DNA of 64,000 nt from Escherichia coli (lineage in GTDB: Bacteria; Pseudomonadota; Gammaproteobacteria; Enterobacterales; Enterobacteriaceae), in the NCBI RefSeq assembly GCF_048403405.1, contig NZ_CP183129.1, one strand, 5' to 3'. The notes below the pieces were generated by a model that did no database searches, was not told where the DNA came from, and saw only the letters and a program-made list of their open reading frames with translations. Shown piece after piece: positions 19,971-27,601 of the stretch (the first letter of the stretch is position 1; each line of letters begins with the position of its first letter). The position numbers and the translations under genes are program-made.

Positions 19971-20816
19971 ATGAATAACATAACCGTAAAAAGTCTGATT
20001 CAAAGCAATTACCCTACACTGCATCAGGCGGAAAAAAAGGTCGCCGACTATATTCTTAGCCACGCACATGAAGTCGTGAACTATAGTGTCACTGAACTAT
20101 CAGAAAAAAGCCATGCCAGTGAAGCGACTATCGTGCGCACCTGTAAGAAATTAGGTTATCAGGGTTATTACCATTTAAAAATTGCATTAGCAAAAGAAGT
20201 CATTAATCCTGACAATAGCTATCCTGATAATACCGATTTTACCGATATAACGTCGCTGGCCACATTTTTATTAAAAAAACAGGCCGAAGATTTAATACAA
20301 TCAACGCAATTTTTTAATGCCGAAGTGCTTGAGTCCATTCTCAAACTACTTGCTAATTGCGATACTATTTTCTTTTTTGCTGCCGGAAATTCAAACCCTC
20401 TGGCCGTTTATGGTGCTTATAAATTCAGCCAACTCGGATTAAAAACCGTTGTTCACGTCAGCCCGGAAATGCAAATTAATGCGGCATATTCTATGGGGAA
20501 ACGCGACCTGGCGATTGGTATTTCTAACTCTGGCAGCACCAACTTAATGGTCGATATCTTTAAAGTGGTGAAAGAGCGCGGTGCCAAATCCGTTTGTATC
20601 ACTAACTATATTAAATCTCCGTTATCAAAACTCTCCACCCATCAACTCAATACCGCGGTCAGCGATAAAATCTTCTTTGAAGCCTTCGACTCCACTCGCG
20701 TTCCGGCAATGGGCGTTATTGATATGCTGGTGCTGTTGTTTATGTATAAAAACAAGGCGCATTACGAGAAATACCGCACCCGTGAAGAGTTTCTCGGCTC
20801 CCGTTTCAAGGGGTAA
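19971..20816 (+). CDS. RpiR/MurR-family transcriptional regulator (HTH + SIS domain)
   Basis: 281-aa ORF with N-terminal HTH_6-type region (SVTELSEKSHASEATIVRTCKKLGYQGYYHLK) and C-terminal SIS domain. Confidence 0.85.
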   Translation: MNNITVKSLIQSNYPTLHQAEKKVADYILSHAHEVVNYSVTELSEKSHASEATIVRTCKKLGYQGYYHLKIALAKEVINPDNSYPDNTDFTDITSLATFLLKKQAEDLIQSTQFFNAEVLESILKLLANCDTIFFFAAGNSNPLAVYGAYKFSQLGLKTVVHVSPEMQINAAYSMGKRDLAIGISNSGSTNLMVDIFKVVKERGAKSVCITNYIKSPLSKLSTHQLNTAVSDKIFFEAFDSTRVPAMGVIDMLVLLFMYKNKAHYEKYRTREEFLGSRFKG

Positions 20817-20840
20817 AAGGTCATCCTTTCACCCCTTGTG
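20810..20840. terminator. Hairpin between the convergent RpiR-family and transketolase genes (possible bidirectional terminator)
   Basis: GGGGTAAAAGG-TCAT-CCTTTCACCCC inverted repeat overlapping the rpiR-like stop codon, followed by TTGTG; 30-bp gap between convergent stops. Confidence 0.4.
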
Positions 20841-20845
20841 CAGGT

Positions 20846-22843
20846 TTAGCTATTCAGTAGCTCACGCGCCTGCGCCAGGACATTTTCCGGCGTAAAACCA
20901 AAGTGTTTGAACAACACATTCGCCGGAGCAGACTCACCAAAGCTCGTCATCCCAATGACTTTACCATCCAGACCGACGTAGCGTTCCCAGAATCCGGCGA
21001 TGCTGGCTTCTACCGCCAGACGTTTGCGTACAGCTTTTGGCAATACCGATTCTTTGTACGCCGCATCCTGATTATCGAAACGCTCGGTACACGGCATGGA
21101 AACTACGCGAACTTTACGCCCTTCTTCCGTTAACGCTTTTGCGGCGCTGACCACTAACTCAATCTCTGAACCCGCAGAAATGAGGATCATCTCAGGCTGA
21201 CCGTCACAATCACTCAGTACATAACCACCACGCGCAATCTCTGCCAACTGTGCAGCGGTGCGCGGCTGTTGCGCCAGCGGTTGGCGCGTTAATACCAACG
21301 ACGTTGGGCCATCTTTGCGCTCAATCGCCTGTTGCCAGGCCACCGCCACTTCCACCTGATCGCAACCGCGCCAGGTTTCCATATTCGGCGTCAGACGCAG
21401 CGACGCCAGTTGCTCAACGGGCTGATGTGTCGGGCCGTCTTCGCCCAGGCCGATGGTATCGTGGGTATAAACAAACACCGAGCGGATCTTCATCAGCGCC
21501 GCCATGCGCAGTGCATTACGCGCATATTCCATAAACATCAGGAAAGTACCGCCGTAAGGGATAAACCCACCATGCAGCGCAAGACCGTTCATGATGGCCG
21601 ACATACCAAATTCACGCACGCCATAGGAGATGTAATTCCCCGCCGGATTTTCCCCGGTGAAATCAACCGATTTCTGATGGCGAGTCAGGTTAGAGGGCGA
21701 CAAGTCCGCCGAGCCGCCCATCAGTTCCGGCAGCATATCAGCGAAGTGATTGAGGCATTTCTGGCTGACCTGACGGGTTGCCAGCGCCGCCGGATGGGAT
21801 TGCAGATCGTGCACATATTTCTGCATATTCTCGGCCCAGCCAGCAGGCAAATCACCCTTCATGCGACGAGTAAACTCCGCCGCCAGTTCCGGCCACTGCT
21901 TCGCGTAGTCAGCAAACAGTGCATCCCATTCCTGTTGAACCTGCGCGCCTTTCTCGGTCGCATCCCATTCGGCATAAATTTCACCAGGAATTTCGAAAGG
22001 GGCATACGGCCATTGCAGACGTTCACGCACCAGCGCCACTTCATCTGCACCCAGCGCCGAGCCGTGGCAATCGTGGCTGTTGGCTTTATTTGGTGAACCA
22101 AAACCGATAATCGTTTTGCAGCACAGCAGACTGGGCTTATCCGTGACGCTTTTCGCTTCACGCACCGCAGCATCTACCGCTTCTGGATCGTGACCATCAA
22201 CGCCTTCAATGACATGCCAGCCGTAGGCACGAAAACGGGCAGCCGTATCTTCAGCGAACCAGCCTTCTACGTGACCATCGATCGAAATACCGTTATCGTC
22301 CCAGATAGCAATCAGATTGCCGAGCTTCAGCGTTCCTGCAAGACCACAGGCCTCGTGGGAGATCCCTTCCATCAGGCAGCCATCACCCAAAAATAGCCAT
22401 GTGTGATGATCAACAATATTAAAGCCCGGTTTGTTAAATTCTGCCGCCAGCGCCTTCTCCGCAATCGCCATCCCCACCGCATTAGCTACGCCCTGCCCCA
22501 ACGGGCCGGTGGTGGTTTCAACACCCGGCGTATAACCATATTCTGGATGACCCGGCGTGCGGGAGTGGAGCTGACGAAAGTCGCGAATATCATCCATCGA
22601 CAGGTCGTAGCCTGTAAGATGCAGCAAAGCGTAAATCAACATGGAGCCGTGACCGTTCGACTGAACATAGCGGTCGCGGTTAAACCACTGCGGATTTTTT
22701 GGGTTATGACGCAGGTGACGACGCCAGACCACTTCGGCAATATCCGCCATCCCCATCGGCGCGCCCGGATGACCGGAGTTCGCTTTCTGGATCGCATCAA
22801 CACTTAACATTCGGATGGCATTAGCCAGTAATTGTGAATTCAT
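20846..22843 (-). CDS. tkt: Transketolase paralog (third tkt copy; possibly the ExPEC-associated 'tkt1')
   Basis: 665-aa ORF collinear with E. coli TktA/TktB over its whole length ([81 protein letters not shown]) but clearly divergent from both, and located in an accessory island. Confidence 0.9.
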
Positions 22844-22893
22844 ACTTCAGCTCTCTCTGTCTGGCGGGCTGAAACCAGCCCGCTAATCTCGAA

Positions 22894-24402
22894 TTAGTTA
22901 GCACAGGCCACTGTCATTTCTGTCGGGCGCGGTCTGCTCATTACGGTTTTAATTTCGTCGCGCAGGATTTGCGATTTGCCGCCAAATATCACCTGTACAC
23001 CGCCATCACCCAGTTTCACTAACCCCGCAGCCCCCAACTCCTTCAGCCGTTTTTCATTCACTTTCTTATCGTCTACCAGCGCCAGCCTCAGGCGTGTTGC
23101 GCAGGCATCCACATCTTCGATATTGTCGAAACCACCTACTGCTTCGATGATTTGGTATGGACGTTCTTCGCGCGTTAATGTGGTTGCAACGGCAATCTCT
23201 TCATCCTCACGTCCCGGTGTTTTCAGATTCAACTTGCGGATCAGTACCCGAAATACGGTGTAGTAAATCGCTGCATAGCCCGCGCCTGCCAGGAACACCA
23301 GATACCACGGCGTGCGGTTTGGCATAACGCCATTCAGTACGAAATCAATAAGACCGCCAGCAAAAGGATGACCAATGTGCACATTCAGGATGTTCATCAG
23401 CACAAATGAAGTGGCATATAAGAAGATGTGAATGATGTAGAGAACCGGAGCTGCAAACAAAAATGCATATTCCAGCGGCTCCGTAATCCCGGTAACAAAT
23501 GTGGTCAGCGCACCGGAGAGTAAAAGGCCTTTAATCAGCGCCTTACGTTCCGGTTTTGCTTCCTGATACATCGCCAACGCGGCGGCAGGTAACGCAAACA
23601 TCATGATCGGGAAACGACCTGTCATAAACAGCCCCGCCGTCAACGGAACACCGTCGCGCAATTGGGCAAAGAACACCGGAATATCGCCCGTCACCAGTTG
23701 CCCGGATTTGGTCATGTAGTCGCCAAAGTTGTAATAAAACGGCACGTTCCAGATATGATGCAGGCCAAAAGGAATCAGCGAACGTTCGCCAACGGCGTAA
23801 ATAAAGGCCGCGAAGTTCGCGTTATGCCCACTGGTCACCAGCGTTGAAAGCGACGCCAGACCTTTTTGTACCGGTATCCACAGCCACGGCAATAAATAGC
23901 CGACAATAATTGCCGCCACCGCCGTAATAATCGGTACAAAGCGTTTTCCACCGAAGAAACCAAGAAACTGAGGCAATTCAATATTGTGGAAGCGGGTATA
24001 GAGCAGATAAACAAAGATGGCGACAATCAAACCGCCAAACACTCCCGTTTGTAACGTCGGTACCCCGAGGATCATCGCATAGTCACCGTTACTGGCTGCA
24101 ACGGACTCCGCGGTAATGCCAAGTTGCGTTCCCATCGTGGCATTCATGATCATGTAACTGATAATCGCTGAAAGTGATGAAGAACCATCACCTGTCAGGC
24201 CAATCACAATACCGACACAAAACAGCAAAGGAAGGTTGGCGAAAATCAGGCCGCCGCAATTCGCCAGCAGCTCAATGTTAAATGAAATCCCGATGGCTAA
24301 AATCAAACCCGCCGCCGGAAGAATGGCGATTGGTAACATCAGAGCAGAAGAAAATTTCTGCAACTTCTTGAAGTTAAACAAGGATGTTATTTTTTTGCTC
24401 AT
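22894..24402 (-). CDS. PTS glucose-family EIICB component (EIIC domain followed by EIIB domain)
   Basis: 502-aa ORF: polytopic EIIC region, then a C-terminal EIIB domain with the phosphocysteine motif DACATRLRL. No EIIA domain. Confidence 0.85.
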   Translation of the reverse strand: MSKKITSLFNFKKLQKFSSALMLPIAILPAAGLILAIGISFNIELLANCGGLIFANLPLLFCVGIVIGLTGDGSSSLSAIISYMIMNATMGTQLGITAESVAASNGDYAMILGVPTLQTGVFGGLIVAIFVYLLYTRFHNIELPQFLGFFGGKRFVPIITAVAAIIVGYLLPWLWIPVQKGLASLSTLVTSGHNANFAAFIYAVGERSLIPFGLHHIWNVPFYYNFGDYMTKSGQLVTGDIPVFFAQLRDGVPLTAGLFMTGRFPIMMFALPAAALAMYQEAKPERKALIKGLLLSGALTTFVTGITEPLEYAFLFAAPVLYIIHIFLYATSFVLMNILNVHIGHPFAGGLIDFVLNGVMPNRTPWYLVFLAGAGYAAIYYTVFRVLIRKLNLKTPGREDEEIAVATTLTREERPYQIIEAVGGFDNIEDVDACATRLRLALVDDKKVNEKRLKELGAAGLVKLGDGGVQVIFGGKSQILRDEIKTVMSRPRPTEMTVACAN

Positions 24403-24443
24403 TTTTATTCTCCTGTAGGGTATCGAGCAAATAACGGCGACGA

Positions 24444-25001
24444 CTATTCCAGATTGGCGTGGCGCTTAAACAGTTCACTTTCCGGCGCACCACTTTCAGC
24501 AGCCATCTTCATCACTAATGCATCGGCAATCACCAGCAAAGCTTGCTCATACAACGACGCCATCGGCTGTGCCGAGCGGAAAACAGAATCTTTTTGATTT
24601 TTGGAAGGGGCATTGATTTGCACGATGACGTCGACAAACTCGGTGATAGTGGCGTGTCGATTCGTGGTTAACACCGCCACAGCGCCGCCAAGCTGACGTG
24701 CTTTTTTCGCCAGTGCCACCAGTTGTGCTGTCTCACCGGAAGCGGAAGAAACGATAAACAGATCGCCAGGCCCAAAGTTCGGCGTAATGGTTTCCGTCAG
24801 AAAGTAAACCTCTTTTCCCATATGCATCAGGCGCATGGTGAAGGCTTTCATGGAAAAGCCGGCGCGTCCCAGGCCATAGCAGAAAACGCGCTGGCTTTGC
24901 TGAATAGCGTCGATCAATTTGGTGCAGTCATCCTCACGGATAGAGTCCTTAACGAAGGTTAATTCATTGATGATCTCAGTGATGTACAGCTTTGCGTCCA
25001 T
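24444..25001 (-). CDS. SIS-domain sugar-phosphate isomerase resembling 6-phospho-3-hexuloisomerase (PHI/HxlB-like)
   Basis: ORF open to 25013; start placed at the second Met (MDAKLYITEII), which has a GAGGTG SD about 6 nt upstream. About 185 aa with FTMRLMHMG, SASGET and C-terminal HANLE, as in PHI/HxlB as I recall it. Confidence 0.7.
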   Translation of the reverse strand: MDAKLYITEIINELTFVKDSIREDDCTKLIDAIQQSQRVFCYGLGRAGFSMKAFTMRLMHMGKEVYFLTETITPNFGPGDLFIVSSASGETAQLVALAKKARQLGGAVAVLTTNRHATITEFVDVIVQINAPSKNQKDSVFRSAQPMASLYEQALLVIADALVMKMAAESGAPESELFKRHANLE

Positions 25002-25307
25002 TTCACACCTCATGAAATAATTTTCTCAAACACAAAATCTCATGAAATTTTATTTCATTCCAATGCATCAGTATGAAATGTGAAGCTAGTCACAAGAAAG
25101 ATCATAGGTTGATATGTTTTTCATTAAAAAACATATAGATATCAAGTAATTTTTAATATGTGATGGAGAGGCAGATAGAAAAAATGGCGGAAATGACGAA
25201 ATTTATTTCATGAGAAGGGAATAAAGAAGATTTTCTTAAACAGGGTATGAACTGATATCTGGAATGGTTTACGCAGTATGCTGGGAAGACGTCGCTGTAA
25301 TGAGAAA

Positions 25308-25338
25308 AGACCGGGTGGTATTACCACCCGGTTTGGAT
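25308..25338 (-). terminator. Rho-independent terminator downstream of metE
   Basis: ACCGGGTGG-TATT-ACCACCCGGT palindrome just 3' of the metE stop, flanked by T-rich tracts in both orientations. Confidence 0.5.
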
Positions 25339-25339
25339 T

Positions 25340-27601
25340 TTACCCCCGACGCAAATTCTGCGCCGCCTGCACCATGTTCGCCAGTGCCGCGCGAGTTTCT
25401 GGCCAGCCGCGCGTTTTCAGGCCACAGTCCGGGTTGACCCACAGACGCTCTGCCGGAATGCGTTTTGCCGCTTTCTTCAGCAAGGCTTCAATCCATTCCA
25501 CGCTCGGTACGTTTGGCGAGTGAATGTCATAGACGCCAGGACCGATTTCATTTGGATAATCAAACTCTTCAAACGACTCCAGCAACTCCATGTCGGAACG
25601 CGAGGTTTCGATGGTGATGACGTCTGCGTCCAGCGCCGCAATCGAATCCATGATGTCGTTGAACTCGCAGTAACACATGTGAGTGTGGATTTGTGTGTCA
25701 TCTTTCGCCACGGCGGCGTTGATACGGAAAGCCTCTACGCCCCACTGGAGATATGCATCCCAGTCGCTACGACGCAGCGGTAAACCTTCGCGCAGCGCCG
25801 GTTCATCAATCTGAATGATGCCAATTCCAGCGGCTTCCAGGTCCGCGACTTCATCACGCAGCGCCAGCGCAATTTGTTTGGCGATGGTTTCACGGCTGAC
25901 ATCTTCACGCGGGAACGACCAGCAGAGAATGGTCACTGGGCCAGTCAGCATCCCTTTCACCGGTTTATCAGTCAGCGATTGCGCATACTTCGCCCACTCC
26001 ACGGTAATCGGTGCCGGGCGGCTAACGTCACCAATAACAATCGGTGGCTTCACGCAGCGGGAACCGTAGCTCTGTACCCAACCGTTTTGCGTAAAGACAA
26101 AGCCATCCAGATGCTCGCCAAAGTATTCCACCATGTCATTACGCTCGGCCTCGCCATGTACCAGCACATCCAGTCCCAAACGTTCCTGCTCAACAATGGC
26201 CTGCTTGATATGTTCCGCAATGCCCGTGCGGTAGTTGTTAGCGTCGAGATTACCCTTTTTAAAATCCAGACGCAGGGTACGAATCTCCGTGGTTTGCGGG
26301 AAGGAACCAATCGTGGTGGTCGGCCACGCGGGCAGTTTAAAACGCGCACGCTGGGCTTCAGCACGCACTTCATAGACATTCGCACGCTGACTGTCCTGGG
26401 CGGTGATCGCCGCCAGACGCTTTTCTACTGCCGGATTATGAACACGAGTAGAGTGACGACGCGCCTGAATCGGAGCGCTCCACTCTGCCAGAGCAGCCGT
26501 GTCACCACTGTTCAGCGCATCGCGCAGCAGTGCCAGTTCATGACATTTTTGCAGGGCGAAGGCAAACCAGCTTTTCACTTCTGCATCAAGACGCGTTTCC
26601 ACGCTCAGGTCGATGGGGCTGTGCAGCAGTGAGCAGGAAGATGCCACCCACAAATCGCGTTTGCCGACAATGTCCTTAATTTGCGCATACTTCTCGGTAA
26701 GATCGGCGCGCCAGACGTTACGACCATTGATCAGACCCGCAGACAGTAGCCAGTCAGAAGGCAGACGCTTGTGCAGTTCAGCAACGTCATCTTTACCATG
26801 TACAAGGTCCACATGCAGCCCCTGAACAGGCAGCGCAGTAATCGTGTCGAGATTTGGCGTTACGCCTTCAAAATAGGTAGTCAGCAGCAGTTTCACCTGG
26901 CCCTGAAGCGCGTCGTAAGCGGGTTTGTATGCGTCCAGCCACGCCTGCGGTAGTTCCAGTACCAGTGCGGGTTCGTCGATCTGTACCCACTCAATGCCGC
27001 GTTTTGCCAGTTCTGCCAGTACTTGCTGATAAACCGGCAGAATGTCGTTTAGCAGGCTCAGGCGGTCAAACTGTTCACCTTTCACTTTCCCAAGCCATAG
27101 GTAGGTAACCGGCCCCAGCAGCACAGGTTTCACCTTGTGGCCCAGCGCCAGCGCCTCGTCCACTTCCTCCAGCAGCTGCGTCCAGGTCAGTTTGAACTGC
27201 TGGCCTTTAACGAACTCCGGCACCATGTAGTGATAGTTGGTGTTAAACCATTTGGTCATTTCCGCTGCCGCCGCAGGTTCGCCAGTCGGCGCACGTCCAC
27301 GACCAATACGGAACAGGGTGTCGATATCTACCGAACCATCTTTGTTCTGATGACGTGGCGGAACATTACCCAGCAGCAGACTGGTGGTCAGTACATGATC
27401 GTACCAGGCAAAATCGCCCACCGGCAGCAGGTCGATACCCGCCTGCTTTTGTTGATCCCAGTGACGGGCACGCAGTTCACGCCCTACTGCCAGCAGTTCT
27501 TCACGCGTGGAGTTCCCCGCCCAATAACTCTCTTGCGCTTTTTTCAGCTCGCGACGCAGGCCAACGCGAGGGAAACCGAGGGTGTGATTAAGAATTGTCA
27601 T
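25340..27601 (-). CDS. metE: Cobalamin-independent methionine synthase MetE
   Basis: 753-aa ORF starting [29 protein letters not shown]; canonical MetE length and sequence. Confidence 0.96.

Follow-up and report, generated by a model that had tools for sequence, protein, structure and literature searches.

The closest described systems to the element analysed here are hairpins between the cistrons of E. coli operons that act on the decay of the mRNA. In the malEFG model, an endonuclease cuts downstream of a 3' structure, PNPase and RNase II are then stopped by this structure, and the upstream gene is stabilised (Dar & Sorek 2018, PMC5927463). In the papBA model, RNase E cuts at RN|WUU in unpaired RNA just 5' of a hairpin, and this hairpin protects the downstream gene (PMC5927463).

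The window (the whole 64-kb stretch of DNA analysed) holds the tkt1 island of ExPEC/B2 strains, adjoining metE. The tkt1 genomic island of B2-group ExPEC/APEC was described by Li et al. 2012 (PMC3349570). The portions of that paper concerned with tkt1 present the gene as picked up in a virulence screen and the island as a B2-group ExPEC marker, and report that Tkt1 fails to complement a tktA mutant; the complementation construct is given there as tkt1 plus 300 bp upstream, and these portions mention no promoter test (PMC3349570). The operon and its surroundings comprise the following features:

24444 to 25013, minus strand: hxlB, first gene of the operon, SIS-domain 6-phospho-3-hexuloisomerase-like (TIGR03127, 205 bits)
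22894 to 24402, minus strand: glucose-family PTS EIICB gene, 502 aa (TIGR02002, 608.6 bits, above the cut-off; RefSeq ptsG), with its TAA stop at 22894-22896
22844 to 22893, minus strand: intercistronic gap between EIICB and tkt1, 50 nt, without annotation
22884 to 22893, minus strand: unpaired A/U-rich spacer of 10 nt between the EIICB stop and the hairpin, UUCGAGAUUA
22864 to 22883, minus strand: core mRNA hairpin
22851 to 22857, minus strand: Shine-Dalgarno-like GAGAGAG of tkt1, 7 nt before the AUG and 6 nt past the hairpin
20846 to 22843, minus strand: transketolase gene tkt1, 665 aa (TIGR00232, 1009 bits; RefSeq tkt), with its ATG at 22841-22843
20807 to 20838, minus strand: hairpin after tkt1 with a 14-bp stem, CAAGGGGUGAAAGG-AUGA-CCUUUUACCCCUUG, overlapping the 3' end of the convergent RpiR gene
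19971 to 20816, plus strand: convergent MurR/RpiR-family regulator gene

An earlier note on this DNA had called the two genes flanking the gap PTS EIICB and transketolase; TIGR02002, TIGR00232 and RefSeq agree with it, and the 50-nt gap that it placed between the EIICB stop and the transketolase start is exactly 22844-22893. RefSeq names metE, hxlB, ptsG, tkt and the convergent MurR/RpiR regulator in the region. This regulator gene adjoins the operon in all related loci, and its product is the presumed regulator of the operon. We infer that hxlB, EIICB and tkt1 form one transcription unit; no sigma-70-like promoter is predicted within or just upstream of the gap (22844-22893). The longest open reading frame of hxlB encodes 189 aa, and the RefSeq version, which starts 12 nt further downstream, 185 aa.

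Upstream of hxlB, a CTCATGAAAT/ATTTCATGAG motif occurs three times in the 300-nt region from the metE terminator (25310-25332), together with a perfect A/T palindrome, all located within 25002-25221:

25009 to 25018: motif copy
25039 to 25048: motif copy
25205 to 25215: motif copy, inverted
25112 to 25136: perfect A/T palindrome, ATATGTTTTT-N5-AAAAACATAT

As candidate operators, the motif copies and the palindrome might be bound by the neighbouring regulators of RpiR or LysR type.

Both flanking genes lie on the minus strand, and the hairpin reads GCGGGCUG-GUUU-CAGCCCGC along the mRNA, with the 5' arm at 22883-22876, the loop at 22875-22872, and the 3' arm at 22871-22864. The stem is a perfect helix of 8 bp, including seven G-C pairs, and the loop has 4 nt. 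The plus-strand reading of 22864-22883 is GCGGGCTG-AAAC-CAGCCCGC, i.e., the perfect GC-rich 8-bp stem with an AAAC loop that had been noticed before. The coordinates then assigned to it, 22862-22884, include flanking bases as well, and they went with a description of the plus strand, while the transcript corresponds to the minus strand. On the plus strand, 22862-22863 pair with 22884-22885 and lengthen the stem by one G-T and one T-A pair. The hairpin starts 10 nt past the EIICB stop and ends 20 nt before the tkt1 AUG, thus spanning -40 to -21 relative to this AUG. Its folding energy is -16.9 kcal/mol, and the folding z-score is -4.2 for a piece of 32 nt, weakening to -2.5 over the 50-nt gap and further to -1.1 when 81 nt are taken. 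When 300 nt of mRNA were folded, its pairing probability was 0.84-1.0 in each of the three lineages tested.

Composition by itself is not decisive for such a structure. The window contains eight perfect 8-bp hairpins with at least six G/C per arm, against a mean of 1.4 in dinucleotide shuffles, and three against 0.46 when at least seven G/C are required in the 8-base arm; one GC-rich 8-bp hairpin somewhere in 64 kb is unremarkable by itself. This hairpin is more than a chance occurrence because of its position in a gap of 50 nt and because it is conserved with compensatory changes. The asymmetry between strands is mixed. The antisense hairpin is two pairs longer in E. coli, the energy favours the sense strand in a low-GC lineage (see below), and the wobble changes among lineages favour the sense strand as well. 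Energy alone gives no strand assignment; of the two strands, it is the sense strand for which transcription is known.

The hairpin resembles the malE-malF structure and the internal 3' protective hairpins found genome-wide in E. coli (PMC5927463) in being a stable stem-loop at a cistron boundary, without a U-tract, placed shortly after the stop codon that closes the segment it would protect, and conserved between enterobacterial species. As in internal protective structures, the cistrons on its two sides are co-oriented and the structure recurs in orthologous operons. It differs from malE-malF, where the structures are multi-copy REP sequences, in being single-copy and much smaller (20 nt), and its role in decay is putative. 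The resemblance to the papB-papA hairpin of uropathogenic E. coli (cited in PMC5927463) lies in the order of the elements: an A/U-rich unstructured stretch with RN|WUU-like sequence, then the hairpin, then the ribosome-binding site of the downstream gene. In and near the spacer there are RNase E-like sites of RN|WUU type (U at +2), namely GA|UUA and an AA|UUC that overlaps the EIICB stop, although this motif is degenerate and the sites are, unlike in papB-papA, putative. A cut at GA|UUA would leave about 4 unpaired nt at the 5' end. From the work on ompA and papA, such a length is borderline for protection.

The EIICB-tkt1 junction, taken as a piece of 401 nt, is present once each in 1134 of the 5426 complete E. 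coli genomes, with an identity of at least 99% in 978 of these. All the 1134 genomes have the 50-nt gap as a single copy, and in 1113 of them its identity is at least 99%. Five gap sequences were read, and in these the stem is unchanged, the variants differing by a base near the AUG. A REP/BIME or another dispersed palindromic repeat is ruled out by the occurrence at one place per genome (1134 genomes), and the window itself holds no further copy, the hairpin being its only match at up to three mismatches. One of the 1134 junction matches lies on a record classed as plasmid. The left flank of the island varies among B2 strains: CFT073 has, at positions 1-615 of its locus, a pseudogene of tssD (type VI secretion tube) upstream of hxlB, which replaces the metE of the metE-flanked strains.

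Close relatives of this junction are few. Searches with the EIICB protein, followed by look-up of the encoding contigs, returned an EIICB-tkt junction in four sequence types. A search of genome contigs with EIICB produced only two loci with close relatives, the rest being 36-49% identical; these distant matches are mostly from Firmicutes and Fusobacteria and in other gene contexts. A distant search of a plasmid collection retrieved only unrelated tkt genes and no EIICB-tkt junction, and a pattern for tkt1 starts from outside E. coli, applied to metagenome contigs, added just one contig, which does not differ from the Scandinavium type. The hairpin is present at the same position of the junction in all four lineages:

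E. coli (reference): GCGGGCUG-GUUU-CAGCCCGC
Klebsiella huaxiensis type (L026-L028), also beside metE: GCGGGCUG-GUCU-UAGCCCGC, with a G-U closing pair
Scandinavium tedordense (L004, L024): CGGGCUG-GUAA-CAGCCCG, with the core stem of E. coli and a GNRA-type loop
low-GC type from Logan assemblies (L016-L019): CGGAUUG-GAAA-UGAUCCG, with four core pairs changed

The 14-nt core stem is identical between E. coli and Scandinavium, and the other lineages show only compatible changes. Relative to E. coli, the low-GC type has changed both sides of pair 22/33 (G-C to A-U) and of pair 23/32 (C-G to U-A), and its pair 24/31 went from U-A to U-G; pair 25/30 went from G-C to G-U in two lineages. The core has thus two compensatory pairs and two pairs turned into G-U wobbles (three changes). 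Counting also an outer A-U/U-G pair, three pairs are altered on both sides. In the alignment of the four sequences, 90.9% of the cells of a helix of 11 positions are standard pairs, a share that drops to 27-39% once the 3' partners are shifted by 1-3 columns, and RNAalifold gives the same helix. Shuffle controls reached 5/500 and 24/500; they are weak, with only four sequences and a control known to be lenient. Meanwhile, the third-codon identity of the flanking genes is 0.41-0.52 among the E. coli, Scandinavium and low-GC lineages. The pairing has been kept while only 41-52% of third-codon sites are identical, and the stem is therefore held by selection: by the pattern of substitutions, the hairpin is real and kept under selection in four lineages. 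Further invariants are the three basal pairs of the core stem (G-C/C-G), the G as first base of the loop, and the AGAGAG of the tkt1 Shine-Dalgarno with the spacing between the hairpin and the SD/AUG. The spacer upstream of the hairpin is unpaired and A/U-rich in all the lineages.

Some of these records deserve comment in their own right. L004 (CACSKA010000003.1) is titled 'Chryseobacterium sp. 18061', yet its transketolase, EIICB and glutamate-type dehydrogenase are identical to proteins of the enterobacterium Scandinavium tedordense, and the label looks wrong or contaminated. The variant in L026-L028 has about 87-89% DNA identity, sits at the same metR-metE site on contigs attributed to Klebsiella huaxiensis, and has a different PTS gene beyond the RpiR gene. 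That another genus, Klebsiella, shares this insertion point suggests either horizontal transfer or a mis-assigned contig.

We favour, tentatively, the interpretation that the hairpin is a selected structure that would mark a decay boundary in the hxlB-EIICB-tkt1 mRNA, rather than a site of termination. RNA polymerase would read through it because it has no U-tract. Following cleavage of the transcript by RNase E, this compact, GC-rich stem-loop could act in one of two ways: 1) as in malE-malF, it would block the 3'-to-5' exonucleases PNPase and RNase II, so that the hxlB-EIICB segment outlives tkt1; or 2) as in papBA, a cut in the 10-nt A/U-rich spacer would turn it into a 5'-terminal hairpin that shields the tkt1 segment. 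Either way, the amounts of permease and transketolase mRNA would be uncoupled from a single promoter. The sequence itself cannot decide the direction; the upstream-protecting variant may be slightly favoured because upstream protection is commoner in the published survey, in which 30% of decay-regulated operons stabilise the middle or downstream gene instead (PMC5927463). The existence, position and conservation of the hairpin are observations, from which we infer its function in decay and the direction of this function. The spacing suggests that the hairpin can probably stay folded while both cistrons are translated, since it starts 10 nt after the stop and ends 6 nt before the SD. Given the known geometry of the ribosomal mRNA channel, a start 10 nt past the stop should place the hairpin at the edge of what a terminating ribosome can reach, or slightly outside it. 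The earlier note had offered a processing or stabilising element and an attenuator as possible functions. The former is the best fit because of the covariation in four lineages, the 10/20-nt spacing, and the likeness to protective structures (PMC5927463). The second hairpin of the operon, at 20807-20838, is in line with a decay boundary: it also lacks a U-tract and fits the structures at segment ends that set differential decay (PMC5927463). In a piece of 56 nt around it, the energy is -29 kcal/mol on the operon strand (z = -7.2) and -23.6 kcal/mol on the other strand; it is probably the structure of the operon's 3' end, or a bidirectional one.

The alternative offered in the note, an attenuator, would make of the hairpin a transcriptional attenuator, a pause site or a leaky terminator that cuts read-through into tkt1 and is possibly regulated, and the anatomy gives it some appeal, because a GC-rich hairpin right behind a stop codon makes up one half, the first, of an intrinsic terminator: the stem is GC-rich, it carries a tetraloop (of GNRA type, GUAA or GAAA, in two of the four lineages), and it lies a few nucleotides past the stop. 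The other half is missing, as had been remarked earlier. Neither strand has a U/T run after the stem: the E. coli tail reads CAGACAGAGAGAG in the mRNA and TAATCTCGAATT in the opposite strand. The terminator scan did not flag the hairpin either, and the intrinsic terminator was rejected as a candidate. In all four lineages the U-tract is absent, with CAGACAGAGAG, CUAUACAAAG or UUGUACAAAG after the stem, and 20 nt further on comes the start of a co-oriented gene. Relatives devoid of tkt do terminate at this location: L015 and L020 have canonical terminators, hairpin plus U-tract, directly after EIICB, followed by a convergent aldehyde dehydrogenase gene in L015 and by a convergent RpiR gene after a 50-nt gap in L020. 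It follows that the lineages with tkt have at this spot a different structure, compatible with read-through, and the comparison suggests a simple rule: a real terminator where the transcript ends after EIICB, and a stem without U-tract where a gene follows. As to regulation, the foldings revealed no competing or antiterminator fold, a permissive Rfam scan of 20000-26000 gave no leader, riboswitch or other match overlapping 22844-22893 even at E up to 10, and the RefSeq annotation of the locus includes no PRD or BglG-type antiterminator gene. Attenuation via Rho would face an untranslated gap of 50 nt, which is short for Rho loading. We regard attenuation as improbable, and a regulated terminator as unsupported. 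The same relatives raise the possibility of a relic, i.e., the stem of an old EIICB terminator whose U-tract disappeared with the arrival of tkt downstream, and which no longer serves any function. The terminators of Serratia ficaria (L015) and of L020 are in the equivalent spot, the latter in the 50-nt gap before RpiR, but their stems have no visible similarity to the E. coli hairpin. Moreover, the stem shows compensatory and wobble-only changes over a time in which synonymous sites have come near saturation, which implies active maintenance of the pairing ever since these lineages diverged, and a relic is improbable.

The main rival to a decay boundary is an effect on the translation of tkt1, and a conserved hairpin could equally act there. 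It might damp or assist initiation from the 30S platform/S1 region, e.g., as the flank of a standby site, or it might bring the tkt1 start closer, in effect, to the EIICB stop, and ribosomes that terminate there could then re-initiate. The position of the hairpin and its spacing to the SD/AUG are kept in four lineages, AGAGAG is only a moderate SD for which upstream context could matter, and protective structures may have a dual role, also lowering translation (PMC5927463). Against this, the stem includes neither the SD nor the AUG of tkt1, and breaking either arm in silico leaves the mean unpaired probability of the SD/AUG unchanged (0.60 vs 0.58 and 0.54). The latter result led us to reject a role as insulator of the SD, and the two translational variants together seem rather unlikely, if less so than attenuation. 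It is far less probable that the inverted repeat is a protein-bound DNA palindrome, such as an internal operator for the neighbouring RpiR- or LysR-type regulator. It is a perfect 8+8 repeat with a spacer of 4 bp, and the two changes on both sides in L016 keep the DNA symmetric, but three other changes (U-A to U-G, and twice G-C to G-U) break the palindrome in DNA and keep the pairing in RNA. The repeat is also located between two cistrons, 2.2 kb from the promoter region, whose own candidate motifs (the CTCATGAAAT repeats and the AT palindrome) are A/T-rich and unrelated to it. Equally slight is the chance that the hairpin is a docking site for a trans-acting RNA-binding protein, or for a small RNA pairing with its loop or flanks, that couples the flux of the PTS sugar to the amount of Tkt1. 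If so, the operon would have an internal, regulated switch in this hairpin instead of a passive barrier to decay, and the invariant basal G-C/C-G pairs and the first G of the loop would be its recognition determinants.

A decay boundary remains the best reading, under which the hairpin, unannotated so far, is best grouped with the intercistronic mRNA-stability hairpins, a known class, with a putative function. A conserved read-through hairpin between permease and enzyme would give a simple handle on the balance of three genes, and it would add a further case, backed by covariation, of internal structures that reshape the output of an operon. The general picture is unchanged, such elements being common in enterobacterial operons, and the relevance is mainly to those working on the tkt1 island.

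The operon is modular. EIICB occurs without transketolase in Serratia ficaria L015, which has an SIS gene upstream, and in L020. Sebaldella and another contig (L022, L023), with EIICB 68-70% identical, have the SIS gene, then a transketolase split into its N and C halves, then EIICB, and in one of the two EIICB is followed by rpiB and an EIIA gene.
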